Source: Verrucomicrobia bacterium UBA3841 (GTDB taxonomy: Bacteria > Verrucomicrobiota > Kiritimatiellia > RFP12 > UBA1067). From it: DNA of 64,000 bases. The DNA is taken from the NCBI GenBank assembly GCA_002392765.1, contig DGHT01000036.1, forward strand, positions 2,870-66,869, in the 5' to 3' direction. A program made the translations under genes and the position numbers. A model generated the notes under the pieces. The model had not been told where the DNA came from. It did no database searches and worked only from the letters and a program-made list of their open reading frames with translations. Of the stretch, positions 13,578-63,007 are shown piece by piece (positions within the stretch are counted from its first letter, which is position 1; every line of letters starts with the position of its first letter).

Positions 13578-13581
13578 CGGC

Positions 13582-23015: not shown

Positions 23016-23090
23016 TGGCAGCCCCAAGGAGAGTCGAACTCCTCTACCAAGCATGAAAAGCTCGTGTCCTAGCCGATAGACGATGGGGCC
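23016..23090 (-). tRNA. tRNA-Glu (anticodon UUC)
   Basis: Reverse complement folds as a cloverleaf: acceptor GGCCCCA/TGGGGCT (G1-U72), D-stem GTCT/GGAC, anticodon stem CGAGC/GCTTG, loop TTTTCAT (UUC), T-arm AGGAG-TTCGACT-CTCCT, discriminator G, encoded CCA. Confidence 0.85.
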
Positions 23091-32891: not shown

Positions 32892-33076
32892 AATTCGCAC
32901 GTTGCGACGAAATTTTCGCGACGAAATTTTCGTCGCAGAAAAGTGGTGCGTTCAAAATCGTCTCATCTTTCGTGTATTTCGCGTATTTCGTGGTTCCATG
33001 AACCGCCTACAATTGCCGCGAAAATGCAAGTAGAAGTGCCGCGAAAGTTAAAGTAAGGAGTGCGGCATGATGACGC

Positions 33077-33103
33077 AACTACACGATCTACACGTTCTAC
33101 ACG
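33077..33103. repeat. Right terminal inverted repeat: (NNctacacg)x3
   Basis: aactacacgatctacacgttctacacg. Confidence 0.8.
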
Positions 33104-33131
33104 TCAAAAACAACAAACAAGGAGAAAGGAA

Positions 33132-45695: not shown

Positions 45696-48367
45696 GAAGG
45701 AAAATCACTGTGGCGGCTTGCGCGTTCGCGGCGGTGGTCGCGCTTGCGGCGGTCGCAAAGACGGTGGACTTCCCGATTCCGGACGCTGTCCGGAGCTGGG
45801 ACATCCCGGAACGGGCCACGAACGGCGTTAAGGCCGTGTGGATCGAGAATGTGCCGTGGCACGGCAAGCCCACGCGTTTCTTCGCCTACTATTCTCTGCC
45901 CGAAGGCGCGACGGCGGAGAAGAAGGTGCCGGGCATCGTGCTCGTGCACGGCGGATACGGAACGGCCTTCCACACATGGGTGAAGCTGTGGAACGACCGC
46001 GGATATGCCGCGATCGCGATGGACAATTGCGGCGGCATCCCCGGAGAGAAGAACCACACGGCTGAACACCCGCGGCACGAGTGGTCCGGGCCAAACGGCT
46101 GGGGACGCTATGAGGAGGAGACTCTGCCGCCGGAGGAGCAGTGGGTATATCACGCGATCGAATGCGTCATCCGCTCGCATACGTTCCTGAGGAATCTCCC
46201 CGAAGTCGATGCATCGAGGATCGGCGTGACCGGAATATCGTGGGGCGGTTTCCTCACGTCGATCGCCTGCGGTGCTGATCCGCGCTTTGCGTTCGCCGTG
46301 CCCGTCTACGGATGCGGAAACCTGCGGCGGCATTCAGTCTTCGCGCCGGAAATCGGCGAGCTGTGGGAGTCGCTCTGGAATCCAGTCGAATACGCGAAGA
46401 ACTGCCGCATGCCGACGCTTTGGTGCACCGGGACGAACGATTATTTCTTCCCGCTCGATTCGTTCGAGGAGACTGCGTTTGCCGCAGGGAATCCTCTTTT
46501 CTCCATCAAACTCCGCATGAAGCACGGGCATCCGCCGGAGGGCGATCCGCCGGAAATTGCGGCTTTTGCCGATTCAATCGTGAAGGGCGCGCCGAAGTTG
46601 ACCGACCGCAAGATCGCGCGCCGCGAGTGGCTGTATACCGAATCCGCCAATCCAGTATGGAAGGACAGACCTTTCGAGGTTTCCGCAGAAGCACCGCAGA
46701 ATTGGACGATACGCTTCGAGAACGCCATCACCGAAGACGGGCTGATCCTCTCATCCCCGCCGGAATTCCAGACGGCGACGCTTGACGCCAAGGGCGTTGT
46801 CGTCAACGGGGCGACCATCCGCGAGACCGAGCGGCGCGTTTTTGCCGACGGAATGGCGATGCGGTACGTTCTGCCGGAAGGCGAGAGGCGAGTGGAACGC
46901 GAAGAAACGGTCTGGACGCTTCCTGCCGACGCGAAGGTGTGGTATCAGGAATACGGCATGGACTATGAAAAGCCGTATTGCTCCTCGCTCGTGAGCGAGA
47001 TTCCCGTCGGCACTGTGATGGATTTCCCCGTGACGGCGAAGCTCGCGGACGGGACATATCGCCTGATTACCGAGGCGAATGTGGTCGGCTACACCGATTC
47101 CGCCGCGAAGTATATTGGCGATGGACGCTTCGGTGTATTCTACGTGAACGACCCGGACGGGTTCGACCAGAAGGGCGCGGATACGACGCCCTGGCGCGTG
47201 ATGCTTGTCGCCAAGGATTTGCAGACGCTTGCGACGAGCGACATTGTGCGGCGGCTTTGCCCCGCGCCGTCCGCAGCGGTTGCGGCGAAGGCGGCGAAGT
47301 TCGTCCGCCCCGGCCGCGCCGTCTGGCAGTGGCTGCCGGCGGGTGCGCCCAAGTATGGAGAACAGAAGGAGTGGTACGACAGGACGAAGGCGCTGGGCTT
47401 CGAGTATTACCTTATCGACGACGGCTGGCGCGATTGGCGCGATGGCGACATGGACCAGTGGGCGTGCCTCAAGAAGAGGATCGACTATGGGAAGTCCATC
47501 GGAGTTGAGACTTTCATGTGGGTCGACTCCAAGGAAATGCGCAATGCCGAAACTCGCCGCGGGTATCTTGCGAAGGTTAAGGCGTCGGGTGCGGTAGGCA
47601 TAAAGATTGATTTCCATCCCGCGCCTTCCTGCGAGCAGATGGCATGGTATGAGGAGGCCCTTGCGGACACCCTCGAATTCGGCCTCATGACTGATTACCA
47701 CGGCTGCGTAAAGCCGTCCGGTCGCGAGAAGACGTGGCCGCACGAGGTCGCGCGCGAGGCGATCCGCGGACACGAATGGCACATTACGCGCTACAAGAGA
47801 GTGCTTCCGCCGGAACACGACTGCATCCTGCCTTTCAATCGTCTCGTTCAAGGACACGCCGACTACACGCCGGTAGTCTTCGAGGAGAAAGAGCTTGCCG
47901 GATATACGCGGGCGAGGGAGCTTGCCCAGGGAATAATCTTCTCCGCGCCGTTCCTCTGCCTCGGCGACTATCCGCAGAACTACCTCGAAAGTCCTGCGGC
48001 TGAAGTCGTAAAGGCGCTGAAGCCGATCTATGACGAGACGATTATCCTTCCCGGCTCGGAGATTGGCGAATGCGTTGCGGTCGCAAAGCGCAAGGACGAG
48101 AAGTGGTTCATTGCAATCGAAAACGGCGCAGAGGACCGCAGCCTTGAAATCCCGCTTTCGTTCCTTCAGTCCGGCAAGTGGCGGATGAAGAAGTTCGCCG
48201 ACGCCGAAGACTCCAATATCGAATTCGACATTTCGGAATGCACCGTCTCGCCATCCGATACGCTGAAGCTCGCACTCCGCGCCAAAGGCGGGTTTGTGGC
48301 CGTCATTGAACCTGAACTCGACTGGGCTAAGCGCGAGAAGGCGAAGTTCATGCATCGCTACGGATAA
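45692..48367 (+). CDS. Bifunctional-looking protein: N-terminal alpha/beta-hydrolase esterase (acetyl-xylan-esterase-like) fused to a C-terminal DDGW-type TIM-barrel alpha-glycosidase-like domain (GH97/GH27/GH36-like)
   Basis: Signal peptide. GISWGG nucleophile elbow. C-terminal half with GFEYYLIDDGW and GIKIDF blocks. Confidence 0.5.
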   Translation: MRRKITVAACAFAAVVALAAVAKTVDFPIPDAVRSWDIPERATNGVKAVWIENVPWHGKPTRFFAYYSLPEGATAEKKVPGIVLVHGGYGTAFHTWVKLWNDRGYAAIAMDNCGGIPGEKNHTAEHPRHEWSGPNGWGRYEEETLPPEEQWVYHAIECVIRSHTFLRNLPEVDASRIGVTGISWGGFLTSIACGADPRFAFAVPVYGCGNLRRHSVFAPEIGELWESLWNPVEYAKNCRMPTLWCTGTNDYFFPLDSFEETAFAAGNPLFSIKLRMKHGHPPEGDPPEIAAFADSIVKGAPKLTDRKIARREWLYTESANPVWKDRPFEVSAEAPQNWTIRFENAITEDGLILSSPPEFQTATLDAKGVVVNGATIRETERRVFADGMAMRYVLPEGERRVEREETVWTLPADAKVWYQEYGMDYEKPYCSSLVSEIPVGTVMDFPVTAKLADGTYRLITEANVVGYTDSAAKYIGDGRFGVFYVNDPDGFDQKGADTTPWRVMLVAKDLQTLATSDIVRRLCPAPSAAVAAKAAKFVRPGRAVWQWLPAGAPKYGEQKEWYDRTKALGFEYYLIDDGWRDWRDGDMDQWACLKKRIDYGKSIGVETFMWVDSKEMRNAETRRGYLAKVKASGAVGIKIDFHPAPSCEQMAWYEEALADTLEFGLMTDYHGCVKPSGREKTWPHEVAREAIRGHEWHITRYKRVLPPEHDCILPFNRLVQGHADYTPVVFEEKELAGYTRARELAQGIIFSAPFLCLGDYPQNYLESPAAEVVKALKPIYDETIILPGSEIGECVAVAKRKDEKWFIAIENGAEDRSLEIPLSFLQSGKWRMKKFADAEDSNIEFDISECTVSPSDTLKLALRAKGGFVAVIEPELDWAKREKAKFMHRYG

Positions 48368-50426: not shown

Positions 50427-51209
50427 ATGAGAACTATATGTGAAGCAACTCTATCAGCAATGCTTTTGACGGTTTTCTGCGGCGGAACTTTTGGCTTGGA
50501 GCATTGTCATCCGGTCGGCGAACGGGGAACTGGGAACGGGGAATTGACGGTGTCGCCTGGCGGGATGTCTCCGAGGGAAGCACTTCTCGCAATCCGCGCG
50601 GCGAAGGCGAAAGGGAATACCGGCGCATGGACTGTCCGTGTGGAACGCGGAGCCTATTTCCTCGCAGAGCCGCTTGTTTTCACGCCAGCGGATTCCGGAA
50701 CGCCCGAAGCGCCTGTACGCTGGGTCGGCGAAGACGGCAAGGCGGCGTTCGTCGGCGGGGAGCGGGTCAAAGGATGGCGAGACGAGGGCAATGGCTTGTG
50801 GTCGGCACCTGTTCCGAAGGATGCGGAAGGGAATCCAGTATGGTTCGAGCAGCTGTGGGTAAACGGACGCCGTGCGGAGCGTGCCCGCGCGCCGAACGCT
50901 GTTCCGGACGATCCAGCCGCTGGCTGTATGAAGCTCTGCGAAGCGACGGAGAGCGTTGTCACGAATGCGGTGGACGGGTCGGTGGCGTACATCCAGCGCA
51001 TCGCTTCCACCAATGCGGCGATGTCCAAGTTGGAGAACACCCTCCCCGCGCCGCTCAAAGCCGCATACGACGGTCTGGAAGTGGAATTTTCAGCCGCCGG
51101 GACGGCGGCTTTCCCAGTCAATAACGGGCGAGACGCCACCCCTGCTAGGGCATCGCGAACGCGACTCGCCTTCGGCTCGGGGGATATGTTCCCCCAGTGT
51201 GGTCCCTAA
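50427..51209 (+). pseudogene. Truncated parallel beta-helix enzyme gene (first ~200 codons) fused to a duplicated 3' end of the MBL gene; chimeric remnant
   Basis: N-terminal cap similar to the 37835 protein (SPGG...AWTVRVERGAYFLAEPLVFTPADSGTPEAPVRWVG...VKGW). From about 51031 the sequence is a copy of 28614-28679 (ENTLPAPLKAAYDGLEVEF), then reads into repeat A2. Confidence 0.6.
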
Positions 51210-51412: not shown

Positions 51413-51605
51413 AATATATTCGGATGGCAAATACCTCTAATGACAACAATCCCACAATCTCATAATTTCATAAACGAGCGGGACGGTCGGCTTTCCCAGT
51501 TACCTCTTTCCTCGCAACGGGCGAGACGCCCGTTCCCCCAGTTATTCACGGAGCGGGACCTTACAACTCCTTGGAAGCCGCAATTTCACATTTTACACTT
51601 TATTT

Positions 51606-51614
51606 GTGGTATAA
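51606..51614 (+). promoter_or_regulatory. Extended -10 TGGTATAAT upstream of rbsK (Shine-Dalgarno AAAGGAGG at 51666)
   Basis: Direct read. Confidence 0.4.
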
Positions 51615-51682
51615 TATAATGTGGAAGCGCACGTATTCGCGTTCGTCGCGCTGTAGACGGCTTGAAAGGAGGAATCAAGACA

Positions 51683-52612
51683 ATGACGAAACCATCGAAG
51701 AAAATCGTAGTGCTGGGTTCGACCAACACAGACATGGTGATCGCCGGCAAGCGCATCCCCGTTCCGGGCGAGACAGTGAGCGGCGGAAAATTCATGATGA
51801 ACCCGGGCGGCAAGGGAGCAAACCAGGCCGTCGCCGTTGCGCGGCTCTCGGCGAAGCGCGGACAGTGTACGTTCATCGCAAAAGTCGGTGACGACATCTT
51901 CGGCCGCGAGACTGCGGCAAGGATGAAGAAGGACGGCATAGCGGCGCATCTCGTCATCGACCGCAAGGAGCAGTCGGGTACGGCGCTCATACTCGTTGAC
52001 GCGAAGGGGCAGAACGTAATATCCGTCGCGCTCGGCGCCAACGGCACGCTTTCGCCGAAAGACGTAGAGCCGTTCAGGAAGGATATAGAGGGCGCGGCGG
52101 CGCTCGTCATGCAGCTTGAGACCCCTGTCGAGACGGTCTTGTGGGCGGCGAAGGTCGCGCACGACAAAGGCGTGACGGTGATACTGAACCCGGCCCCGGC
52201 GGGGAAACTTCCGAAGTCGCTCTATCCGCTCGTGGACTGGATCACGCCGAACGAGACCGAGGCGGAGCTGCTGACCGGCGTGAAGGTGTCAGATGCCGCG
52301 AGCGCGGCCAAGGCGGTGAAAGTCCTGAAGAAGCGCGGCGTCGGGCATGTCGTCATCACCATGGGCACGAAAGGCTGCTGGTGCGGCGATTGCGGAAAGC
52401 TGTTTCCAGCTCTCAAGGTGAAGGCGGTCGACTGCGTTGCGGCCGGGGACACGTTCAACGGCGCGTTTTCCGTCGCGCTCGCGGAAGGCAAGTCGTGTGC
52501 GGAGGCGATAGATTTCGCGCAGAAAGCCGCAGCGATCGCCGTCACCCGCCCGGGGGCTCAGTCGTCCGTGCCGTACCGGAAGGAAATTGTTAAATTGAGG
52601 GAACAGGGATGA
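51683..52612 (+). CDS. rbsK: Ribokinase (PfkB family)
   Basis: VVLGSTNTDMV, GGKGANQAVA and AAGDTFNGAF ribokinase signatures. Strong Shine-Dalgarno AAAGGAGG. Confidence 0.8.
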   Translation: MTKPSKKIVVLGSTNTDMVIAGKRIPVPGETVSGGKFMMNPGGKGANQAVAVARLSAKRGQCTFIAKVGDDIFGRETAARMKKDGIAAHLVIDRKEQSGTALILVDAKGQNVISVALGANGTLSPKDVEPFRKDIEGAAALVMQLETPVETVLWAAKVAHDKGVTVILNPAPAGKLPKSLYPLVDWITPNETEAELLTGVKVSDAASAAKAVKVLKKRGVGHVVITMGTKGCWCGDCGKLFPALKVKAVDCVAAGDTFNGAFSVALAEGKSCAEAIDFAQKAAAIAVTRPGAQSSVPYRKEIVKLREQG

Positions 52613-52652
52613 GGGAACAGGGATAAAGTGTAAAATGTAAAGAGTAAAATAT

Positions 52653-55600
52653 ATGAAGAAAACAATTGTCGCGCTTGCATGCGCCATGTCCACGTGGGTC
52701 GCTGCTTCCGAGCCGGTCAAAGTCATTTTCGACACCGATATGATTACCGACTTCGACGATGTCGGCGCGCTCGCGTGCCTGCACGCGCTCGCCGACGCTG
52801 GCGAGTGCGAGATACTCGCTACGGTCAGCGCGACGCGCGGCAATGCGTCGGTAGGCGCGATCGAGGTGATCAACCGCTACTACGGGCGCGGCGATCTGCC
52901 TGTTGGAGCGCCGAAGGGCATGGGGGTGATCGGCGAAAAAGCCGGCGCGACGGAGAAGGTCCGCCCGGACGCGCCGCTCGGAGAACGGACCGGCAACGAC
53001 GGCGGCCACTACAAGTACCGAAAGCTGCTCCAGGACTATCCAGGGTGGTACCGGTACGCCGATGCCGACGACGCGCCCGACGCGAATGAAGTCTATCGCC
53101 GCGTTCTCGCCGCGCAGCCGGATCGCAGCGTGACGATATGTTCCGTTGGCTTTCTCACGAACCTGCGCAGACTTCTCGAAACGGAGCCGGACGCGATTTC
53201 GCCGCTCAGCGGCAGGGAACTTGTCGAGCGGAAAGTCAGGCTCTGGGTCGCCATGGCATGTAAATATCCGACAGGCAAGGAATACAATTCGAAATGGGAT
53301 GCCGAATCCTCGCGCATCGTACTGGAGAGCTGGCCGACGCCAGCCGTATTCACCGATTTCGAATATGGCAAAGACTGCTTTGCGGGACGGGCGATCGCTG
53401 AGACGCCAGACCCCGGTCCGGGGCGCAATCCCGTCCGCGACGTGTTCGCAGGCAACATCCCATCGCGCGATGAGATTGCAAGCGACCCGGCAAAATGGCT
53501 CCGCCGCTCGTTCGGCGCCGGCGGGCGCAGCGCATGGGACGAGACGGCGGTGCTGATAGCGGTGCGCGGCACGGAGCCGTATTTCAACGTTGAACGCGGC
53601 GCATACCGCATGGTCGGCGACGACGGCACGGACGAGTGGGTCCCCGACGCGCAGCGCGGTCCTCATCTCCGCGTCACGGAAAAGCTGTCCAAGGCGAAAG
53701 TCGCCGCCGTTATCGACGATCTGATCCTGCGCGGACCGCGCGAGGGCGCGTCTCCCCGGGCGTCTGACGAGGCGCAGCCGGCGATATCGCAGGCTGCGGC
53801 GGCGGATGTCGCCTCTCTTCGCCAGGCGGTGTGGAACGAGGCGAGCGACGGCGGCTCGTTTTCCGTGACATGCACTGTCACCGCCGTGATACATGCGGAT
53901 CAGCGGCATACTTCCTATTGGGTGGCGGACGATACGGGCTACGGATACATGCGCGCGACAAATTCCCTCGATGTCGCGCCGGGCGACCGCATTGTCGCGC
54001 AAGGGCATATCGGGATGGACGGCTTCGACTGGCGGCGGGCGTTCATGGAAGGCGCGGTGCGGCTTGGCCGCGGCGAAGTTCCCCCGCCGGTGCCTGTGTC
54101 GCCCGAGCAACTCGGCGACGAGTCTTTTGACGGACGGATCGTCATCATGAGGGGTATCGTGACCGACATAGTCCACGATGAAATCGATCCCGCCTGGCGC
54201 TTCCTCCTGATGCGTACCGGCTCCGCGCCGTTTTTCGCGGCGGTCTGTTCGGACGACGACGAGGCGTTCGGACGGCTGCTCGGCGCGGAGATTGCGGCCA
54301 AAGGCGTGGCGACCGTCCTGCCGGACGGCGGCAAGCGGAAGTTCCAGACGCCGCAGCTCACGGTCGCGGGCGTGGACGACATCACCGTGGAAACGCCCCC
54401 GGCGGAGGATCCGCTGGACGCCCCTCGCATTCCGTCCTATCCGCAGAAGACCCTCGAGGGACTGCGCTACAAGTCGGTGTCGGCGCTTTCGCGGATGGGC
54501 ATGAGAAGCGTCGTCGGAAATATCATAGCCGTGTACGACGGCGCCAGGCGGATGCTGCTGAAGACGTCCGACGGGCAGATAGTCGGCGCGCATCTGCGAA
54601 AGCCGACCGACATGGAATTCGGGGATTGCGTCGCGGTGGCGGGCTTCCCCGAGACCGACCTTTTCATCATCACTCTCGACAAAGCGATATGCCGCCGCGA
54701 GCCGGGGGATCGTATCGCGTACGACCCGCCGCAAACGCTTCCTGAGAATTTCGCGATGGAGGTTGTCCTGCGCGACATCTGCGCGCATGGCGGCGCCGTG
54801 CGGATACGCGGGCGCGTCGACGAAATGGATGTCGACGGGAGGGCGTTCGAAGTGCGGCACGGCGGACACTTGATACGCGTCGACTTCGGCGCAGTCGCGC
54901 CGCATGTGGATGCGGTTGAACCCGGCAGTCTCGTCGAAGTCGCCGGCACTTGCGTTCGCAACACGAGCGCCGATGCATCCGGCGGCTTTACGCGTACGGC
55001 GGGATTCACCGTCGTCCCCCGGACTCCGGAGGATATGCGGATTGTCGCCGGGCCCCCGTGGTGGACGGTAGGGCGGATGCTCGCGGTCGTCCTGGTCCTC
55101 GCCGCGGCGCTCGCGCTCGCGGCTGCCTGGAACATCACTCTGCGCCGTCTCGCGGAACGCCGCGGAAGGCTTCTTTACAAGTCGAAACTGGAATCCGCCG
55201 CCGCCGATCTCCGGGTGGAGGAACGCACACGCCTCGCCGTGGAACTGCACGACTCGATAGCGCAGACTCTCACCGGCGTTTCTTTCCAGATCGACGCAGC
55301 GGAGCGGACTTTGCCCCGGGATGCGGCAGAACCGGCCGGCTACATAGACGCCGCGCGGAAGGCGCTCCTTTCGTGCCGCGAGGAGCTGAGACGCTGCCTG
55401 TGGGACCTCAGGAGCGAAACGCTCGCCGAACCTGATCTCCAGAATGCGATAGAGAAGACGGTCAGACCGCATATCGGCGGCACGGACGTGACGATACGAT
55501 TCCATGCAAGCCGCCGCCTCATCCCGGATGTCATTGCGCACAACGTGCTTTCGATCATCCGCGAACTTTGCGTAAACGCGGTGAAGCACGGCAGCGCGCG

Positions 55601-55817
55601 CAAGATTCGCATAGCGGGCGAACTCAAGGACGGGATGATCCGGTTCGTCGTCAGGGACGACGGTTGCGGATTCGATGTCGAAAACCGTCCAACGCCTATG
55701 CAGGGGCATTTCGGTCTCCAGGGGATAAAGGAGCGGACGCGGCGTTTGCACGGGACGCTTGAACTGGAAAGCAAGGTCGGCGGGGGAACTGCCGCGACAG
55801 TGGAGATTCCGCTATGA
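52653..55817 (+). CDS. Sensor histidine kinase (HisKA_3/HATPase_c, NarX/LiaS type) with a ~790-aa periplasmic region that begins with an inosine-uridine nucleoside-hydrolase-like domain
   Basis: Signal peptide MKKTIVALACAMSTWVAA. IUNH aspartate cluster IFDTDMITDFDDVGALACLHAL. Single TM helix MLAVVLVLAAALALAAAW around residue 810. H-box AVELHDSIAQTL. ATP-lid IRELCVNAVKHG ... DDGCGFD ... GLQGIKER. Confidence 0.7.
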   Translation: MKKTIVALACAMSTWVAASEPVKVIFDTDMITDFDDVGALACLHALADAGECEILATVSATRGNASVGAIEVINRYYGRGDLPVGAPKGMGVIGEKAGATEKVRPDAPLGERTGNDGGHYKYRKLLQDYPGWYRYADADDAPDANEVYRRVLAAQPDRSVTICSVGFLTNLRRLLETEPDAISPLSGRELVERKVRLWVAMACKYPTGKEYNSKWDAESSRIVLESWPTPAVFTDFEYGKDCFAGRAIAETPDPGPGRNPVRDVFAGNIPSRDEIASDPAKWLRRSFGAGGRSAWDETAVLIAVRGTEPYFNVERGAYRMVGDDGTDEWVPDAQRGPHLRVTEKLSKAKVAAVIDDLILRGPREGASPRASDEAQPAISQAAAADVASLRQAVWNEASDGGSFSVTCTVTAVIHADQRHTSYWVADDTGYGYMRATNSLDVAPGDRIVAQGHIGMDGFDWRRAFMEGAVRLGRGEVPPPVPVSPEQLGDESFDGRIVIMRGIVTDIVHDEIDPAWRFLLMRTGSAPFFAAVCSDDDEAFGRLLGAEIAAKGVATVLPDGGKRKFQTPQLTVAGVDDITVETPPAEDPLDAPRIPSYPQKTLEGLRYKSVSALSRMGMRSVVGNIIAVYDGARRMLLKTSDGQIVGAHLRKPTDMEFGDCVAVAGFPETDLFIITLDKAICRREPGDRIAYDPPQTLPENFAMEVVLRDICAHGGAVRIRGRVDEMDVDGRAFEVRHGGHLIRVDFGAVAPHVDAVEPGSLVEVAGTCVRNTSADASGGFTRTAGFTVVPRTPEDMRIVAGPPWWTVGRMLAVVLVLAAALALAAAWNITLRRLAERRGRLLYKSKLESAAADLRVEERTRLAVELHDSIAQTLTGVSFQIDAAERTLPRDAAEPAGYIDAARKALLSCREELRRCLWDLRSETLAEPDLQNAIEKTVRPHIGGTDVTIRFHASRRLIPDVIAHNVLSIIRELCVNAVKHGSARKIRIAGELKDGMIRFVVRDDGCGFDVENRPTPMQGHFGLQGIKERTRRLHGTLELESKVGGGTAATVEIPL

Positions 55818-56434
55818 AGAAGATCCGCGTTATGATCGTCGACGACCATTCGGTCGTGAGGATGGGCCTTACGGCGATATTGAATCTTGAAAAGGACCTC
55901 GTCGTGTGCGGCACGGCGGAAAGCGGCGCGGAAGCCGCGGATGCCGCGCTGCGCTTCAAGCCGGACGTGATTGTAATGGATCTCATGATGCCTGACATGG
56001 ACGGCGCGGAGGCGACGGCGGCCATCCGCAAAACCCTCCCCGATGCGAAGATACTGATACTTACGACATTCGGTACTTCGGGGGAACTTTCGCGCGCGGT
56101 CTCCGCCGGCGCGACCGGCGCGGTGACGAAGAACATAGCGAACGCCGAACTCGTCGCCGCCATCCACGACACGGCGGAAGGGCGGCCTCACTTCTCGCCG
56201 GAAATCCGCCAGGCGCTGGACGACGCGGCCGCGCTGCCGGATTTCACGCGCCGCCAGCTGGAAGTCCTCAAGTCAATAACGCGCGGACTTTCCAACGACG
56301 ACATCGCCCGGCAGCTGGGACTCTCCAAAACGCGCATCAAGCAGCATCTTAACGAGATTTACGACAAACTCGGCGCGGCGAATCGCGCCGAGGCCGTAGC
56401 GATCGCCATGCGCCTGCCGGGTTTCGACGCGTAA
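55814..56434 (+). CDS. NarL/FixJ-family response regulator (REC + LuxR HTH)
   Basis: IRVMIVDDH...VIVMDLMMPDMDG receiver domain. C-terminal LuxR HTH LSNDDIARQLGLSKTRIKQHLNEIYDKLG. ATG overlaps the kinase stop (ATGA). Confidence 0.85.
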   Translation: MKKIRVMIVDDHSVVRMGLTAILNLEKDLVVCGTAESGAEAADAALRFKPDVIVMDLMMPDMDGAEATAAIRKTLPDAKILILTTFGTSGELSRAVSAGATGAVTKNIANAELVAAIHDTAEGRPHFSPEIRQALDDAAALPDFTRRQLEVLKSITRGLSNDDIARQLGLSKTRIKQHLNEIYDKLGAANRAEAVAIAMRLPGFDA

Positions 56435-56479: not shown

Positions 56480-56495
56480 CTGTCCTTTAGGACAG
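56480..56495 (+). terminator. Hairpin CTGTCC-TTTA-GGACAG after the regulator gene (weak; no U-tract)
   Basis: Perfect 6-bp stem with a 4-nt loop, 46 nt after the stop. Followed by TGGTATAAT at 56517-56525. Confidence 0.25.
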
Positions 56496-56593
56496 ATTGC
56501 CGGATTGCGCCATCGGTGGTATAATGACTATGAGATTCTCAATTGGAAAACCAGTTGGGAAAACACTTCATGTCCATCAAAAGAGGGTTCGTA

Positions 56594-59500
56594 ATGAAAC
56601 GATACATGCTTGCAATGCTCTTCGCAATGGCCTCGCTCTTCGCGTCCGCCGCCGCAACGGTTATAAATGTTCCGGCGAATGGCTCCCTTGAGCTGACGAG
56701 CGGAAACAACAAGGACAATACAATCATCGTCGCGGCTGGAGGAGCTACGATCACGTTTGCGAACGGAAGCGGGAACAAGACGTTTTATCCGCACCTTGTC
56801 GTTTCCGGCGGCGTCGTGCGCGTCAGTTCGTCTGGATTTTCCCGTTATCGGTTCGTCTCCGGCGTTCGCGCCGTCGACGGAGGCTCGCTTGAAATCGACG
56901 GCGTTTCAACGATCAGCATCGACCGCAAGACAATTCCAGACCCCACTGATATCATGCCGGCCACCGGCCCGCTTTGCGACTTCGACAACGTAAGCTTCAC
57001 TTCCGGTTCCGGCAAACTTGCGCTCAATTACAATGCCACCGTCCGTCGGTTGCCGAACTGCAAGATCGTCGTGGAGCCTGGCGACAGTGCGGTGCCCACG
57101 ACGGTTGCCCTCGCAAGCACTGACTCCAACGCCGCCGCTGCGCTGCTTGATAATGGCTCGCTTTGCCTTACCAACTTCAACGCCATAGCGCTTACGGCTA
57201 ATGCGCTTCCCGACGGATGCCATGTGCGGGTTTCGCCAGGGCGAACTTTCAAGTTCGATCAAGGGAATCTTGCTGCTGATGGTTTGACCTTGATGCCTTC
57301 CTCCGGTGCGACAGGCCTCTTCAACATTGAGCTTCTCGGGCGCGGTGCGACGGTGTGCTTTGCAAATGATGGAGGAAAGAACATCCGATGCGAGTCAAAC
57401 ATCACAGGGCTTGGCGAAATTCTCTTCAAGCCGAATTCAGGAACTGTCATAACGCGCTTCCGCGGCATGGCCTATACGGCGACAGATTCTTCGTCATTTT
57501 CAATTCCGGTTGACACGGCGAACGAGCCTGTTCCCACAGAGAGCTGGAAGTCAAAGGTTTCGCACTGGTTCGACGCTTCTGACGAGTCGACGCTCGTACC
57601 GTTCTCGTTCGATCCGTCCGTCTGGGGCGGCAATTGGGTAAGCGCAAAAAACGAATTCGATGGGAATCAGCTTGTCATTGGCATGAAGGACAAGGTGGAG
57701 GGTTCTACTGTGTCGCTGTACAACAAGCGGCTATGGAGCGCAGACGGGCATTTCAGCGCGTCGCAATATCACCTTCAGGTCCTGCCGTATATGGTAAAGG
57801 ACGGTTTGAACGGTAAGACGTATTTGAGTTGCGGAAAGCGCGGTGATCCATCCGATGGAGCCAAGTATGATTCCAACGGCAATCTCATATCATCAACCGA
57901 GAACCGCCGTCTCAAATTCTGGAGTTCCACGGCGATTGACGGCAGCACAGTTCCATCAGGTGGCTATACCAAGATCAGTGCATCTTATGCAATACTCGTT
58001 TTCGGTTCGCAGAACGGCGGTGGCGAAGCGGTAATCGGTACGGACGGCAATCAGGTGCCCGGGAACGGTTCGTTTGTCCGGCAGAGTGGAATCGACAAGG
58101 CATGGACTACCCGAGACGGTTATTCCATGCATGCTGATGGGCTTACTGTAAATCCGAAAAGCGCAAAGCCGAACGGCGGATGGCAGATTCTATCTATAGA
58201 CATGTCGGCGACAAATACGCTGGTCAACGGTCTCGGACCGATGGATGCCAATGCCGGCGAAACCGACTGCGGCGGTCAGAACTACGCCGAAGTCATCTTC
58301 TTCTCCGAGAAGCCGACGACTGTCGAGCGCGCCGCCTGCGAGCGCTACCTTGCCGAGAAGTGGGGCCTCGAATCCTCTTATGCGCAGTGGGATGTTCCGT
58401 ATGCGCAGCTTAGCGGTAGTTCGGGGACCGTGACTCTCTACGACGATGCCAGAACCACATACGACAGTGTGGAAGAGATAGCTGCGGAAGGTTCGTTCTC
58501 CGGTACAGTAATCATTCCGCGCGAAAAGACGCTGGTCATTGAGAAACCACTTCCACCTACAGAAGCGGATGTGCCGGAGACGAATCGCGTCGGCTGGTAC
58601 GACCCCGACTTTTCGGGTGCGGTTGTATACGATGCAACCGCGCTTGGACACGACGATTTGCTCTATGTACTTTATGGCAGGACGTTGGTGGACTTGTGCA
58701 CAGACGATAACGATATATGGTTCACGAGCGGATGGCGCGGAGATAGCGGGGCCGTCAACAATTTCGCACCTTCCGTCTCACGGTCTGCACGAGGTGCGCT
58801 CACGACCGGCCCTAAACGCAACTGGCTCAATTTCAAGGAAAGTCACGGGGACTCCCTCGGTAATATGATTCGCTCGCGCAAGGTATTTTCTGGCGTAAAC
58901 GGATCCATGTACCCCATGAAAGTCCGGCAGGGGTTCTTTGTCGTCGATACTTCGTCCGGAGGCGGTGACATATTCAATACAGATGCTACGTTTTCTAAAG
59001 GCAAGATAAAGCCTCGCACCGACGGAAGCGACAGCAGCAAACCGATCTGGCGTGATGGTACGGTCGCTATGTCAGGCACATGGCTCGACACGGACGAGAT
59101 CAACGGGGCGGAGCGAGGCTACAACGGCAGGGCAGAGGTTTTGTCTTTTGCTACCGAAAGCGAGACTTTGGATGTGGGATATGTTGCAAACTACAACGGT
59201 TCTCATACCGAGATTGTCGGTGAATTCATACTCTACTCCCAGCCGCTGGAAGATGCGGCACGGACGAAGGTGCAGGAATACTTGATGTACAAGTGGTTTG
59301 GCGACTTGAACAACAAGTATGCCGACTTTACAGGGGCGACCGTTCAGGGCGCGGGAACGGTGAAGAGCCCGACGTTGCGCAACCTGCCGAAGTTCGGCAC
59401 CAACTTCACGGGTTCCCTTACCGGCGGCTCGCGGCTTGAGTTCAACCTTGGTGTGGACGGAGTCGCAGACCCGATCGACATTGGAAGGGCACTTGTCCTT

Positions 59501-59704
59501 GAGGACGGCGCGACGGTCGCCGTGAATGTAACGGGAAAACCCGCTCCGGGAAATTACACGCTCCTGACCGCAGAGTCGATAACCGGCACGGCGACGCTTG
59601 ACGTCATCGGCCTTCCGGACAGCCGCAAGGCTAAACTCCATGTAGATACTGATGAAATCTGGATGGAGGTGTCCGGGCCGGGAATGATGGTTATCTTACG
59701 CTGA
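56594..59704 (+). CDS. Large secreted protein with two LamG-like jellyroll domains (Verrucomicrobia/Lentisphaerae-type, YLxxKWG motif)
   Basis: Signal peptide MKRYMLAMLFAMASLFASAAA. Two occurrences of the jellyroll tail motif (NYAEVIFFSEKPTTVERAACERYLAEKWGL and EIVGEFILYSQPLEDAARTKVQEYLMYKWFG). Confidence 0.6.
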   Translation: MKRYMLAMLFAMASLFASAAATVINVPANGSLELTSGNNKDNTIIVAAGGATITFANGSGNKTFYPHLVVSGGVVRVSSSGFSRYRFVSGVRAVDGGSLEIDGVSTISIDRKTIPDPTDIMPATGPLCDFDNVSFTSGSGKLALNYNATVRRLPNCKIVVEPGDSAVPTTVALASTDSNAAAALLDNGSLCLTNFNAIALTANALPDGCHVRVSPGRTFKFDQGNLAADGLTLMPSSGATGLFNIELLGRGATVCFANDGGKNIRCESNITGLGEILFKPNSGTVITRFRGMAYTATDSSSFSIPVDTANEPVPTESWKSKVSHWFDASDESTLVPFSFDPSVWGGNWVSAKNEFDGNQLVIGMKDKVEGSTVSLYNKRLWSADGHFSASQYHLQVLPYMVKDGLNGKTYLSCGKRGDPSDGAKYDSNGNLISSTENRRLKFWSSTAIDGSTVPSGGYTKISASYAILVFGSQNGGGEAVIGTDGNQVPGNGSFVRQSGIDKAWTTRDGYSMHADGLTVNPKSAKPNGGWQILSIDMSATNTLVNGLGPMDANAGETDCGGQNYAEVIFFSEKPTTVERAACERYLAEKWGLESSYAQWDVPYAQLSGSSGTVTLYDDARTTYDSVEEIAAEGSFSGTVIIPREKTLVIEKPLPPTEADVPETNRVGWYDPDFSGAVVYDATALGHDDLLYVLYGRTLVDLCTDDNDIWFTSGWRGDSGAVNNFAPSVSRSARGALTTGPKRNWLNFKESHGDSLGNMIRSRKVFSGVNGSMYPMKVRQGFFVVDTSSGGGDIFNTDATFSKGKIKPRTDGSDSSKPIWRDGTVAMSGTWLDTDEINGAERGYNGRAEVLSFATESETLDVGYVANYNGSHTEIVGEFILYSQPLEDAARTKVQEYLMYKWFGDLNNKYADFTGATVQGAGTVKSPTLRNLPKFGTNFTGSLTGGSRLEFNLGVDGVADPIDIGRALVLEDGATVAVNVTGKPAPGNYTLLTAESITGTATLDVIGLPDSRKAKLHVDTDEIWMEVSGPGMMVILR

Positions 59705-59737
59705 CGCAGAAGGAAAAGCTCGCGGAGGAATGCTTAC

Positions 59738-60754
59738 ATGAACTGCAACAGGCGATCGTTCCTTGCTCTTGCCGCAACTGGTCTTGCGGGTTGCTTCACC
59801 GGCGGCAACGGCGCGACCGGACGTCGACAAGCCGATGCGACGGCAGGCGAGGCGGCCGGGCGGGAGCCTCTCTTTGACGACAACCTAAGCGTGATAATCT
59901 CCGATGCGCATGTGTGCGGCGAAGACGCCCGCGCGGCGAAATACACGCCGAAGCGGCTTGTTGCGTTCGTGGACGAAGTGCTCGCGATGCGCCCGCTGCC
60001 GCGTCGCGTGATCCACCTCGGCGACCTCGCGTACCTTCACGGGCATCCGGCGGACTACGCCGTCTCCAAGCCGATACTGAAGCGCCTGGAGGATGCGGGC
60101 ATCGAGCTTGTTTTCTGCATGGGCAACCACGACCGCCGCAGCGAGTTCGCCAAGGCGTGGCCGGGGCGTCTCGAGAAGTCGCCGGTCCCGGGGAAATACG
60201 TCAGCGTCACTTCGCTCGGCACGGCTGACATCGTGATTCTCGATGGACTCCAGGGGACGGACGACCGTCTGCTTACCGACATGGGCCCGGGGAGCGGTCT
60301 CCTCACGGCAGACCAGTTCTCCTGGATCAAGAAGGAACTTCCCAAGCGCAAGCGCCCGTTCTTCGTCGCTTCGCACTTTCCGGTCGACGACTTCAAGACG
60401 TCCGACAAGAAGCACGGACATCTCGGCCGCTGGCTCATAAAGAACGCGCCCATGTGCATAGGGTATCTCTACGGGCACATCCACCGCTGGAGGCCGGAGT
60501 GGATACACGGGGCTTGGAGCGAGCGCAAGTCGCTTCGCACCCTTTCGATGCCGTCCAACGGACTTTGGGGAGACATCGGCTATGTGACGCTGAGAACCGG
60601 CGAGGACCGCGCGGTGTGCTCGCTTGAGATGAAGGACTTCTTCTTTCCGGCGGAGCCGAGCGACCCCAACGACCGTCCGGCCCCGTGGAGAATCAAAGTC
60701 GAGGAGTCGCGGGGTGCGACATGCACGTTCCTTTATGACAGGCAGGGCGTTTAA
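59738..60754 (+). CDS. Exported calcineurin-like metallophosphoesterase
   Basis: Tat/lipoprotein-like MNCNRRSFLALAATGLAGC. GDLAY and GNHD metal-binding motifs. Confidence 0.7.
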   Translation: MNCNRRSFLALAATGLAGCFTGGNGATGRRQADATAGEAAGREPLFDDNLSVIISDAHVCGEDARAAKYTPKRLVAFVDEVLAMRPLPRRVIHLGDLAYLHGHPADYAVSKPILKRLEDAGIELVFCMGNHDRRSEFAKAWPGRLEKSPVPGKYVSVTSLGTADIVILDGLQGTDDRLLTDMGPGSGLLTADQFSWIKKELPKRKRPFFVASHFPVDDFKTSDKKHGHLGRWLIKNAPMCIGYLYGHIHRWRPEWIHGAWSERKSLRTLSMPSNGLWGDIGYVTLRTGEDRAVCSLEMKDFFFPAEPSDPNDRPAPWRIKVEESRGATCTFLYDRQGV

Positions 60755-60755
60755 A

Positions 60756-61556
60756 ATGAATGTATGCAGATATGCCGCCGCCGTTGTCGCGGCACTCATT
60801 GTCGCTTCCGCAGGCGCCGTACAGACGTTCGCCGAGCGGCTTTCCGCAAAGCGTCCGTTCCTGATAGCGCACCGCGGCAGCCAGTCGCTCGCGCCGGAGA
60901 ACACGGTCGCGTCGTTCGTATGCGCGGCTCGGCTCGGGCTGGACGCGATAGAAACGGACGTGAGGCTTTCGAAGGACGGCGCGCTCGTATGCGCGCACGA
61001 CGACGATCTCGTGCGCATGTTCGGCGTGGAGCGCAAAGTCGCCGACATGACGCTGGCGGAGCTTCGCGGACTTGTGCCTGTGAAGGGGAAGGGACTCAAG
61101 TCGTGGCCGAAGGAGGCGCTTCGCATCCCGACGTTCGCCGAGTACCTTGACGTATGCGAGAAGTACGACAAGGTTCCGTTCATCGAGACGAAGGGCGACA
61201 TCGCGGTAGTCAAGCCGGTTCTGGAAGAAGTGCGGCGGCGCGGACTTGCGAAGGTGGCGGTGCTCTCGTCCATACAATTCGACCACATCCGGGAAGCGAG
61301 GAGAGTCGACAAGGAGATATTCGTCCACCACATCTTCAGCGAGCCAGAACTTCTCGACGAGCTGGCGGACATGGGCAATGCGGGGCTTTCCTACAACTAC
61401 AAGGATTTGGCGGAAGTCCCGGACGGTCTCGTGGAGCGGGTTCACGCGAAAGGCGTGAAGATGTGCCTTCGGGCTGGCGACACGCCGGCGGCCGTGGAAA
61501 AGATGACCGCCCTCGGGCTTGACTACATACCGACGAACGTCACGATACCGCTGTGA
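60756..61556 (+). CDS. Glycerophosphodiester phosphodiesterase (GDPD family), secreted
   Basis: Signal peptide. LIAHRGS and IETDVRLSKDG GDPD motifs. Confidence 0.75.
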   Translation: MNVCRYAAAVVAALIVASAGAVQTFAERLSAKRPFLIAHRGSQSLAPENTVASFVCAARLGLDAIETDVRLSKDGALVCAHDDDLVRMFGVERKVADMTLAELRGLVPVKGKGLKSWPKEALRIPTFAEYLDVCEKYDKVPFIETKGDIAVVKPVLEEVRRRGLAKVAVLSSIQFDHIREARRVDKEIFVHHIFSEPELLDELADMGNAGLSYNYKDLAEVPDGLVERVHAKGVKMCLRAGDTPAAVEKMTALGLDYIPTNVTIPL

Positions 61557-63007
61557 TGAAATCAGGATTTAAATCAATTGCGATTGCCGTTGCGGCAATG
61601 TGCTTCGGGGCGTCTGTGCGCGCCGAGGCGGCGCTCGGCACATATCTGCCGGGCGAAGGCGGCGTGCCTGTGCGCGTCTGGCAGACGACCGGGCGCAAGG
61701 GCTTTCGCGAGGTGTTCACGACGCCGTTCACCGTTCATGCATACGCGGACAAGCGTCCTCTCGACGTTGATGCGGCGGTCGAAGATCACGAGTTTCTCGG
61801 CCTTGGCGTATCTATGACCGATGCCTCGTGCTGGATTCTGTCGCGTCTCCCTGCGGATAGGCGCCGCGCGCTCCTCGACGCCGTGTTCTCGCCCGAACGC
61901 GGAGCCGGACTTTCCGCCGTGCGGCTCAATATCGGCGCGAGCGACTACTCTACAGCGCTCTACACCTACGACGATGTGCCGGGCGACACGGCGATGGAGT
62001 TCTTTTCCGTCGCCCGCGACGACCGCTGGGTGTTTCCGATGGTAAAGGAGGCGATTGCGGTCAACCCGTCGATATTCCTCTTCGCGGCGCCGTGGAGTCC
62101 GCCGGGATGGATGAAGGACACCGGCAGTTTTGTTGTTGGGCGGTTCAAGGACGGATGCGAAGAGGCGTTCGCCAACTATCTCTTCGCATACGCCGGCGCC
62201 TGCCGCGAGCGCGGACTGGACTTGGGGGCCGTGACGGTGCAGAACGAGGTTGATCTTTCCACGAAGGGGATGTATCCGTCCTGCACGCTCACGGAGGAGC
62301 AGGAGTCGCGCGTGGCGAAGCTCCTCTCGAATAAGCTCCGCTCCGGTGGATTCGGCGCCGGCGTCTGGATCTGGGACTACAACTACAGGGGCGCGACGAA
62401 CCGCGTAGCGCGGCAGCTCGCCGACCCCGAGACCAGCGCGGCCGTCGGCGGCGTGGCATGGCATTCGTACAGACCCGATCCCGCGTGGATGGGCGAACTC
62501 CACCGCAGACATCCGGGCGTCCCGTTCTACCATACCGAGATGGGGCCGGCGCTGAACGCGACAAACCGCACGGAGCGATGGTGGGCCGACACGGTGTTCG
62601 GTGCGCTGGAGAACGGCTGCAGGACGTTCACCGGATGGAATCTCTGTCTTACGGACGACGGACAGCCGACGACCGGACCACACGGATGCGCCGGGCTGGT
62701 CACCGTCGACCTCGACTCGGGCGACTTCGTCCCAAGCAGTCAGTACAGGCTCTTCCGCCACATCGGACCGTTCGTCAAGCGCGGCGCGAAGCTGCTGCAT
62801 GTCGAAGGCGACCGCGACGGAGCGGCGACAATTCTCTTTCGCAACCCGTCCGGAGAACACGTCCTCGCAGTCGCATGCGGCGGGTTCGCCATCGGCAGGG
62901 ACGGCCCGCCGCGCGCAAGGATCCACTTGAAGTGGCGCGGGAAATGGCTCGCCGTGCCGCTGCCGTACGGAACCTGGTCGCTGACTACGGTTGTGTTTGG
63001 GCCGTGA
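61556..63007 (+). CDS. GH30 glycoside hydrolase (glucosylceramidase / xylanase family)
   Basis: Signal peptide. FAAPWSPPGWMK. TVQNEVD (acid/base NE). Confidence 0.7.
   Translation: MKSGFKSIAIAVAAMCFGASVRAEAALGTYLPGEGGVPVRVWQTTGRKGFREVFTTPFTVHAYADKRPLDVDAAVEDHEFLGLGVSMTDASCWILSRLPADRRRALLDAVFSPERGAGLSAVRLNIGASDYSTALYTYDDVPGDTAMEFFSVARDDRWVFPMVKEAIAVNPSIFLFAAPWSPPGWMKDTGSFVVGRFKDGCEEAFANYLFAYAGACRERGLDLGAVTVQNEVDLSTKGMYPSCTLTEEQESRVAKLLSNKLRSGGFGAGVWIWDYNYRGATNRVARQLADPETSAAVGGVAWHSYRPDPAWMGELHRRHPGVPFYHTEMGPALNATNRTERWWADTVFGALENGCRTFTGWNLCLTDDGQPTTGPHGCAGLVTVDLDSGDFVPSSQYRLFRHIGPFVKRGAKLLHVEGDRDGAATILFRNPSGEHVLAVACGGFAIGRDGPPRARIHLKWRGKWLAVPLPYGTWSLTTVVFGP

Follow-up and report, generated by a model that had tools for sequence, protein, structure and literature searches.

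Within the 64,000-nt stretch of DNA analysed here (the window; positions 2,870 to 66,869 of the forward strand of contig DGHT01000036.1, Verrucomicrobia bacterium UBA3841, assembly GCA_002392765.1) lies a gene for a protein of 1054 amino acids (aa), at 52653..55817 on the + strand, in which a nucleoside-hydrolase-fold (NH) domain is joined to a sensor histidine kinase. On balance we favour the explanation that this is a recent read-through fusion in one animal-gut lineage of Kiritimatiellia, set in a locus for ribose scavenging similar to the Rus system of Bacteroides, in which an array of OB-like barrels is the sensor and the NH domain is an accessory enzyme. The protein consists of a signal peptide, the NH-fold domain, four OB-like barrels, one transmembrane (TM) helix and a HisKA_3/HATPase_c transmitter. 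Its gene begins 40 nt after the ribokinase gene rbsK, which is preceded by a promoter, and is followed by the gene for a 206-aa regulator, all on the + strand. A preliminary description, made from the sequence before any database was searched, had proposed this layout, and its parts were borne out: the IUNH-fold domain behind a signal peptide by Pfam and by a structural model, the transmitter after a single TM helix by Pfam and by a hydropathy peak, the NarL-type regulator overlapping the kinase stop codon (ATGA) by matches to Response_reg and GerE, and rbsK behind its own promoter by the scores of ribokinase equivalogs and a TTTACA-17-TATAAT site containing TGGTATAAT.

The fusion is no assembly artefact. 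The exact 1054-aa protein is recorded in NCBI, Logan and ENA, on two contigs, and nine more full-length fusions of 1042 or 1053 aa are found on at least 13 contigs, so that there are at least 10 distinct full-length versions in independent assemblies. The open fusion frame is common to independent assemblies from several projects, at 90–92% nucleotide identity, and hydrolase and kinase are not split by a frameshift or stop in any of these. The architecture is also as rare as had been expected. The first homology search returned only one other cluster at 90% identity (P0001) that shares it (P numbers denote homologous proteins or clusters, and L numbers the genomic loci of relatives, of which 97 were fetched). 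Among 1.84 billion representatives at 50% identity scanned with HMMER, none spans both the NH and the kinase halves of the query; one that spanned both would have scored well above the best match found (598 bits).

The kinase half belongs to a family of tandem-OB kinases in Kiritimatiellia, in which a four-barrel region of about 420 aa is followed by a PPWWT motif, a TM helix and HisKA_3, and then by a 206-aa regulator; the window kinase differs from this family only by the N-terminal addition of NH. A search with the OB region gave about 55 kinase clusters of 670–705 aa and 41–82% identity, none with NH, and the HMMER scan gave about 140 OB kinases of 670–720 aa (35–46% identity). The closest relatives, which are 79–83% identical and 676–693 aa long, lack NH and begin immediately ahead of the OB array. 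The ancestral and universal sensor of the family is the tandem-OB array, not NH, and the earlier suggestion that NH serves this kinase family as its input domain did not survive, since NH was added recently by read-through fusion. Residues 381–800 were modelled by AlphaFold2 (AF2) as four OB-type β-barrels with a pLDDT of 88.8, and the PDB neighbours of the array are tandem-OB proteins (HIN-200, RPA70, TEBP) with global TM-scores of 0.15–0.28, which are so low that the fold match says 'OB-like' and nothing about the ligand. The matches to HIN-200 and RPA raised the idea of an extracellular nucleic-acid sensor, which was rejected on account of these scores and of the distant paralogues that lie in ordinary clusters of carbohydrate-active enzymes (CAZymes). 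The motif residues P801, P802, W803, W804 and T805 do not vary among close kinase relatives, and across the wider family WWT is at least 90% conserved. The transmitter has an invariant H866, N975, D1003, G1004 and G1006 (DDGCGF) and an invariant GHFGLQG box, and its partial NCBIfam matches to NarQ, NarX and UhpB stay well short of all equivalog cut-offs; the kinase has no detected HAMP domain. The 206-aa regulator comes after the kinase in nearly every related locus read.

The way in which NH was acquired is recorded in the DNA, which is a mosaic. The segment 51699-52584 (rbsK) is 81% identical to rbsK of L004, 52712-53731 (NH) is 77% identical to the 3′ half of the transporter–NH gene of L004, and 53806-56409 (kinase and regulator) is 81% identical to L001, all at the nucleotide level; by blastn, homology to NH loci stops at 53731 and homology to kinase loci begins at 53806. 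The junction was compared codon by codon with the L001 sequence MTSAAILFASIANVAALRQ, and with L003 and L004. The unfused L001 kinase starts MTSAAILFASIANVAALRQAVW, where the window reads EAQPAISQAAAADVASLRQAVW and the sister locus L003 reads EAQPAISSAAMANVASLRQAVW, the same stretch codon for codon. The ancestral ATG of the kinase has become GAG at 53769-53771, and L, F and I of the old signal sequence have become S, Q/S and A/M. This start codon is mutated in all fusion assemblies, and the substitutions at the junction are lineage-specific and keep the frame open. In L004 the NH gene ends (...LRPPANVAR*) about four codons upstream of the position of the old kinase start, so that one mutation might have sufficed to join the two genes. 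The old signal sequence had to lose its hydrophobicity, since translocation would have stopped at a hydrophobic segment inside the protein.

The simplest history suggested by these comparisons is that two adjacent genes were joined through loss of a stop codon. A gene for a secreted riboside or nucleoside hydrolase would have lain just upstream of an existing sensor kinase gene; the hydrolase stop would have been lost, the kinase start would have become GAG and the kinase signal sequence a non-hydrophobic linker, and the whole periplasmic part of about 780 residues would now be exported through the signal peptide of the hydrolase. This N-terminus (MKKTIVALACAMSTWVAAS, with EP after the cleavage site) is Sec-like by eye, with an AF2 pLDDT below 50 at residues 1–4 and 6–17, and export of the kinase is now predicted to depend on it. 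The NH–kinase protein is a young and narrow fusion, seen only in the window lineage and one sister cluster.

The NH domain matches Pfam IU_nuc_hydro (PF01156) at residues 24–250 (E 3.9e-11; 43.6 bits against a gathering cut-off of 34.2), and its homologues P0177 and P0009 cover positions 1–259 of the profile. The AF2 model of residues 1–376, made from an alignment of 23 diverse family members, has a pLDDT of 91.3 and a pTM of 0.90. Each of the 50 top-ranked PDB structures is a nucleoside hydrolase, a riboside hydrolase or an NH-like effector, with E-values from 1e-12 to 4e-10; the ADP-ribose binder XopQ is among them, and against PDB nucleoside hydrolases the target-normalised TM is about 0.70 at 14–18% identity. 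A single NH sequence searched against PDB gives no match, and the family profile gets to RihA alone (E 7e-4).

Conservation within the NH family was judged on 23 diverse modules. The Asp cluster reads DTDMITDFDD, a DxDxxxDxDD pattern with two residues inserted, in which D29 and D36 are invariant and D27, D33 and D35 are at least 90% conserved, and the fused domain retains all of the family invariants D29, D36, N170, E210, N212, D216 and D296, plus W295. In IUNH proteins the N-terminal DXDXXXDD cluster provides the ligands of Ca2+ and of the 2′- and 3′-OH of ribose. In profile searches GFLTN (T169, N170) and EYNSKWDAE (E210, N212, D216) align with GP(Q/L)TN and EFN..D of RihA and RihC. The fused NH domain is thus predicted to keep its metal- and ribose-binding residues. 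The pair W295-D296 is invariant or nearly so, lies in the model at the start of a helix that follows a strand, and would correspond to the His–Asp pair of IU-NH, with Trp in place of the catalytic His. Trp at the leaving-group position is the normal state in the purine-specific IAG-NH enzymes. The Asp cluster to which the preliminary description drew attention is therefore retained, and the catalytic His that would be expected beside it seems, from the motif, to have been replaced.

Pairwise ratios of nonsynonymous to synonymous substitution (dN/dS) were obtained among three fused genes, those of the window, L003 and L096. They are 0.09–0.12 for the NH domain, 0.11–0.14 for the transmitter (TM helix and kinase core), 0.24–0.34 for the OB array and 0.66–0.80 for the linker; the regulator gene has 0.12. 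The low value for NH implies that its function has been maintained ever since the two genes fused, through a dS of about 0.3, but dN/dS cannot tell an enzymatic function of NH from a sensory one. Parts of the unit have been eroded in sister strains. In L096 and L097 all that is left of rbsK upstream of the fused gene is 37 nt from its 3′ end, from which it follows that rbsK before NH::kinase is the ancestral order of the fused clade, and in L003 a different gene stands upstream. L095 has lost the NH domain (window 52771-53799), so that its product P0328 is an NH-deleted natural variant; the locus retains the NH signal peptide, about 39 residues, with an intact 724-aa kinase and the regulator, and in P0328 the retained signal peptide is the sole export signal of the kinase. 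A 14-nt exact copy of the rbsK promoter region, ATTTGTGGTATAAT, is found about 175 nt upstream of the L095 kinase (a weak match, E 0.005). The same locus, at 12947-13925, has a 315-nt deletion (window 60616-60929) over the boundary of the downstream Metallophos and glycerophosphodiester phosphodiesterase (GDPD) genes; no intact Metallophos gene is called in it, and GDPD is a short, weak ORF. The regulated operon is probably decaying as a whole in L095, and the loss of NH there is for this reason only weak evidence that NH is dispensable.

The NH domain of the window is one copy of a module that is widespread in the class. A scan with one genome per species placed it at 461 genomic loci or more, almost all in metagenome-assembled genomes (MAGs) of Kiritimatiellia from the guts of ruminants and other animals. 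The first search (120 matches) had found, besides the two fusion clusters, 114 NH domains in 113 proteins, 45–80% identical to the window NH; the module was N-terminal behind a signal peptide in 55, C-terminal in 58 and internal in 2. Copies joined to more than 25 partner families are 50–80% identical. These partners include a DMT-type sugar transporter (PF06800/PF07168), glycoside hydrolases (GH2, GH5, GH20, GH28, GH29, GH31, GH36, GH39, GH43, GH78, GH92, GH127 and a sialidase), a rhamnogalacturonan-lyase-like protein, CE4, GDSL and AXE esterases, a β-lactamase-fold protein, GDPD, an ADP-ribosylglycohydrolase and a glycyl-radical enzyme. Since the module is this promiscuous, fusion to NH does not in itself imply sensing. 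Stand-alone secreted copies also exist (P0177, of 370 aa, and one in L082).

Several of these loci are unusual. L082 (CAVDWI010000095.1) is labelled Barnesiella intestinihominis, is GC-rich and carries its stand-alone secreted NH gene of Kiritimatiellia type; it was considered as a link of the module to Bacteroidetes and set aside, as it holds only housekeeping genes (GlmS-like, serine-dehydratase-like) with no Sus-type genes and is probably mis-binned. P0037 (1073 aa) combines a signal-peptide-like N-terminus and the NH module with a pyruvate-formate-lyase-like glycyl-radical enzyme, a strange combination, given that enzymes of this kind are oxygen-sensitive and reside in the cytoplasm. P0006 has two tandem NH modules; the Asp cluster of the second, DTDMCGGPGD, is degenerate, so this copy may well be non-catalytic. 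L045, L057 (RUG14841) and other MAG loci on short contigs end inside the module, as would happen if short-read assembly fails at the many near-identical copies in a genome, and the copies and their partners have probably been under-counted.

The ribose link proposed in the preliminary description holds, because adjacency to rbsK is kept across many species. Among the best 80 loci, rbsK adjoins the module in 26 and the transporter does so in 24, the usual order being rbsK followed by transporter–NH, and the closest relatives of the window NH (77–80% identity) are mostly transporter–NH fusions directly after rbsK. In L045, which lacks the transporter, the order of rbsK, spacer, signal peptide and NH is collinear with the window (76% over 1953 nt). 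The positive-inside pattern of the first and last loops, a weak method, suggests a periplasmic NH, at the C-terminus, in the transporter fusions, whose hydropathy plots have eight clear peaks where ten are expected. RbsK of the window scores 369 bits (cut-off 341) and 349 bits against the two NCBIfam ribokinase equivalogs, in both cases above the cut-off. No terminator-like site was found on the + strand between rbsK and the kinase gene, and the Rfam scan of the region gave no riboswitch and no other RNA element; the genes for RbsK, the NH–kinase and the regulator appear to share one promoter.

The two-component pair probably controls an operon that lies beyond the regulator gene. The perfect palindrome CTGTCC-TTTA-GGACAG within the stretch CTGTCCTTTAGGACAG is a candidate operator of the LuxR-type regulator. 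It has a single exact copy in the window, whereas with up to three mismatches there are five matches against 0.15 expected, and in an alignment of this intergenic region from five related loci, which diverges elsewhere, it shows 100% conservation. The form CTGTCC-N4-GGACAG occurs in 7 of the 97 fetched loci, always intergenic and flanking a kinase–regulator pair of the tandem-OB family, and extends to the distant L092, a relative of 49% identity. The adjoining promoter-like site TTGCCG-17-TG-TATAAT is conserved in L003, L095, L096 and L001. The preliminary description had connected the kinase with the large gene that follows; the connection is plausible in view of the conserved palindrome at its promoter, but the LamG label given to the gene fell away, as the large secreted protein (1036–1053 aa) has no Pfam match at E <= 1, LamG included, and the true Laminin_G_3 protein of the window is elsewhere (33060-34829). 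Homology of the large protein to the LamG proteins that follow transporter–NH genes in L004 and L006 was also considered, and there is none. It shares only its first ~40 residues with the 707-aa DUF5123 protein of L001. Comparison with L003, L095, L096 and L097 shows that window 56645-59737 is a cassette whose content varies from strain to strain and whose flanks keep about 90% identity: the protein of 1036–1053 aa is encoded in the window and in L003, a 684-aa DUF5123 protein in L096 and L097, and a 659-aa one in L095. The variants agree only in the palindrome, the promoter and ~40 codons at the start of the gene.

The genes after the cassette are more stable. Metallophos and GDPD are syntenic with the kinase–regulator pair in L001, L010, L096 and L097, and the GH30 gene in L010, L096 and L097; an FAD oxidoreductase is also present in the operons of relatives. 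Unfused orthologues are flanked by the same set of enzymes in inverted orientation, and a gene for an endonuclease/exonuclease/phosphatase or a 5′-nucleotidase is close to other unfused orthologues. Distant paralogues stand beside differing hydrolase clusters, so that the kinase family behaves like the locus-specific sensors of PULs (polysaccharide utilization loci) in Bacteroides. The features of the window locus are given in the table.

Features of the rbsK, NH–kinase and regulator unit and of the operon downstream (window positions; residues are those of the 1054-aa protein)
Feature	Position	Strand	Basis and remarks
Sigma-70-like promoter of the rbsK, NH–kinase and regulator unit	51592..51620	+	11/12 consensus matches
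rbsK, ribokinase, 309 aa	51683..52612	+	Pfam PfkB E 1e-65; NCBIfam ribokinase equivalogs
Probable signal peptide of fusion protein, residues 1-19	52653..52709	+	Sequence reading; low model confidence
RusNH-like nucleoside-hydrolase-fold domain, residues 20-362	52710..53738	+	Pfam, AF2 model, PDB fold matches
Fusion junction and linker, residues 363-386	53739..53810	+	Old NH gene end, short spacer, old kinase signal sequence
Ancestral periplasmic sensor, four tandem OB-like β-barrels, residues 387-800	53811..55052	+	AF2 and kinase relatives
Single TM helix, about residues 806-828, preceded by PPWWT	55068..55136	+	Hydropathy peak 810-828
HisKA_3 (857-923, His866) and HATPase_c (967-1054)	55221..55814	+	Pfam
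NarL/LuxR-type response regulator, 206 aa	55814..56434	+	Response_reg and GerE (Pfam); start overlaps kinase stop
Perfect palindrome, candidate regulator site	56480..56495	+	Abuts -35 of downstream promoter
Promoter-like site of downstream operon	56497..56525	+	10/12 matches, extended -10
Large secreted protein, 1036 aa from conserved ATG	56594..59704	+	No Pfam match; probable first regulated gene
Secreted calcineurin-like phosphoesterase (Metallophos), 338 aa	59738..60754	+	Pfam; twin-arginine-like RRSFL N-terminus
Glycerophosphodiester phosphodiesterase (GDPD)	60714..61556	+	Pfam E 6e-33
GH30-family glycosidase	61553..63007	+	Pfam E 1.6e-32

The closest parallel among known systems is the rus PUL of B. 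thetaiotaomicron (BT2802-09), which encodes two ribokinases, a permease, a regulator and the periplasmic RusNH. This enzyme acts on p-nitrophenyl (pNP)-ribofuranoside and only weakly on nucleosides, and its DXDXXXDD motif comes with additional conserved residues (10.1101/574913). Rus loci of Bacteroidetes variably include GDPD, FAD oxidoreductase, HAD, cpdA, an endo/exo-phosphatase, an ADP-ribosylglycohydrolase and many glycoside hydrolases (10.1101/574913). The window locus likewise links a ribokinase to a secreted periplasmic hydrolase of the IUNH family with an extended Asp motif and to a dedicated regulator, and the same families of accessory enzymes are found here as neighbours or as NH fusion partners. 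It differs in belonging to another phylum, in having a two-component pair and not RusR, and in that NH, which is co-encoded in Rus, is here covalently fused to the kinase and in relatives to the transporter or to glycosidases. There is no permease in the window, although relatives have rbsK followed by permease–NH, and no SusC/SusD-type genes were found among the window neighbours examined. The window locus probably works like a Rus system, though it is not a member.

As a two-component system the pair resembles NarX/NarQ–NarL, with HisKA_3 and HATPase_c, a 206-aa receiver and LuxR-type helix-turn-helix protein, translationally coupled genes and a palindromic candidate operator. In place of the four-helix bundle of NarX/NarQ, however, its sensor is a periplasmic part of ~780 residues with NH and four OB-like barrels, and the kinase has a single TM helix after a cleavable signal peptide, without a detected HAMP. 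It is like the hybrid two-component sensors of Bacteroides PULs in coming from a large paralogous family with big, β-rich periplasmic sensors adjoining differing hydrolase clusters, and unlike them in its separate kinase and regulator, its tandem OB barrels instead of β-propeller/Y_Y_Y, and its HisKA_3 transmitter. The NH domain shares with Crithidia fasciculata IU-NH (2MAS), Trypanosoma vivax IAG-NH (1HOZ) and Escherichia coli RihA/B/C the fold, the Asp cluster, G-x-L-T-N and E-x-N...D, and, if W295-D296 is the counterpart, a conserved Asp with an aromatic or His residue before it. It differs from them in its low identity (14–18%), in an Asp motif two residues longer, in about 45 extra residues and a C-terminal β-sheet subdomain, in being usually the terminal module of a larger protein and, if the equivalence is correct, in having Trp for the catalytic His of IU-NH, as in IAG-NH. 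Pseudomonas aeruginosa Nuh (PMC5522865) is a precedent for a periplasmic nucleoside hydrolase. A literature search on nucleoside hydrolases in Kiritimatiellia, and on NH as the sensor of a histidine kinase, found nothing, so that the promiscuous NH module seems to be undescribed in the papers covered.

According to the explanation that we favour, the unit would be a Rus-like locus for ribose scavenging. The regulator, acting at CTGTCC-N4-GGACAG, would switch on the large secreted protein, Metallophos, GDPD and GH30, and these enzymes would break down a polymer containing ribose or phosphodiesters. The membrane-tethered NH would bind and cleave the resulting β-ribofuranosides and RbsK would phosphorylate the ribose, with the OB array staying the primary ligand sensor; NH would be an accessory enzyme, co-expressed and co-localised, that may also bias kinase activity. 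Several findings weigh against this. The fusion of the module to more than 25 unrelated enzyme families means that its role may not be riboside hydrolysis, no ribose transporter was found in the window by tblastn, and an intact rbsK is missing upstream in three of the four sister strains read. The NH family is far from characterised enzymes (14–18% identity; PDB profile E 7e-4), and the match of W295-D296 to His–Asp is a motif comparison, since three methods of aligning it with E. coli RihC (hhalign, hmmalign and a global pairwise alignment) covered the central motifs and did not extend to this region. On the kinase side, the likeness of the OB array to nucleic-acid-binding OB proteins is generic, and more distant kinases of the family adjoin unrelated CAZyme or hydrolase clusters.

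A second reading, tentative but worth serious attention, makes NH a pure passenger, an enzyme and donor of a signal peptide that has no signalling role and is on the way to loss or to a split. The nearness of the old stop and start codons means that one mutation could have been enough, the linker has evolved almost neutrally, and the unit has been eroded, with relics of rbsK in L096 and L097, no rbsK upstream in L003 and NH deleted in L095. Yet NH is intact in at least 10 variants and the fusion has persisted through the divergence noted above, the kinase now seems to need the NH signal peptide for its export, and the damaged Metallophos and GDPD genes of the NH-less strain suggest decay of the whole locus and not a neutral loss of NH.

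It is somewhat unlikely, in our judgement, that NH is a true input domain, by which the binding or turnover of extracellular nucleosides or ribosides would set kinase activity and be coupled to rbsK and the downstream operon. NH does lie covalently in series with the sensor and is under strong purifying selection, with its predicted metal- and ribose-binding residues kept. The linker lost hydrophobic residues, so that NH and the OB array would both stay periplasmic, rbsK appears to share its promoter with the kinase and regulator genes, and NH folds can bind ligands, as the match to XopQ with ADP-ribose illustrates. Against these points, the entire kinase family works without NH, the fusion is limited to two clusters at 90% identity, and one strain has deleted NH and kept an intact kinase and regulator (its target genes being damaged too); moreover, a tethered enzyme would equally give purifying selection, and the module joins non-signalling transporters and glycosidases just as readily.

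We regard as improbable a further reading, in which the module is a general periplasmic accessory, either an oligomerisation scaffold or an anchor that binds glycans or ribofuranose, and gathers glycosidases, the transporter and the kinase into assemblies. Its terminal position in nearly all of the first 120 matches, and its similar copies at hundreds of loci on many partner families, would suit this role. Canonical nucleoside hydrolases are obligate dimers or tetramers, and the apparent replacement of the catalytic His by Trp could be read in the same sense, although Trp is normal in IAG-NH enzymes. The residues that are conserved are those predicted to bind metal and ribose (D29, D36, E210, N212, D296), stand-alone secreted copies exist, and the tight linkage to rbsK argues for ribose production. 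Finally, that sequencing or assembly merged two genes has next to no probability: related contigs often break inside the multi-copy module, as in L045 and L057, but the same open frame in independent assemblies at 90–92% identity, and a mutated kinase start in all of them with lineage-specific substitutions in an open junction, speak against it.

The window as a whole has 60% G+C and is rich in CAZymes (GH29, GH43, GH97, rhamnosidase-like and GH30 genes). To the left of the rbsK unit, at 50427-51209, is a 260-aa ORF with only a faint GH141 match, followed by ~470 nt of non-coding DNA, and 77 nt at 51011-51085 match (78%) the 3′ end of the Lactamase_B_2 gene found before rbsK in L004 and L005; the region resembles a scar left by a rearrangement at the left border of the unit. 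An 891-aa protein (45692-48367) joins an N-terminal esterase (matches to AXE1, dienelactone hydrolase and Peptidase_S9) to a complete GH97 with its N, catalytic and C domains. The 1595-aa ORF at 40908-45695 has a weak C-terminal TPR match as its sole Pfam signal, and as its listed GTG start overlaps the GH43 gene (39628-41139) by ~230 nt, the real start is probably further downstream. A single tRNA gene (23019-23090, − strand) is the sole Rfam match in the window at the gathering threshold.

The input domains of sensors are usually inferred from ancient and settled architectures, whereas here an acquisition is recent enough to be followed step by step: a stop codon was lost, a start codon mutated, a signal peptide turned into a linker, export was handed to the incoming domain, and erosion followed in sister strains. 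The locus also offers ready-made natural controls, in the unfused orthologue, the fusion and the NH-deleted variant, for the question of whether an enzyme domain can turn into a sensor. A more speculative idea, which we think unlikely, is that the NH module is a clade-wide plug-in of gut Kiritimatiellia, recognising ribofuranosides or associating with itself, and joined covalently to their sugar transporter, to dozens of exo-glycosidases and esterases and, in the window, to a kinase. It would physically couple the processing of glycans that carry ribose, or of debris from nucleic acids, with their uptake and sensing. If this were true, the window protein would have the first catalytically competent enzyme-fold input domain captured by a histidine kinase, seen within ~10% protein divergence of its capture. 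More broadly, the findings suggest that the Kiritimatiellia of the rumen and gut may have a counterpart of the ribose scavenging of Bacteroides, achieved through the fusion of domains and not through the clustering of genes.

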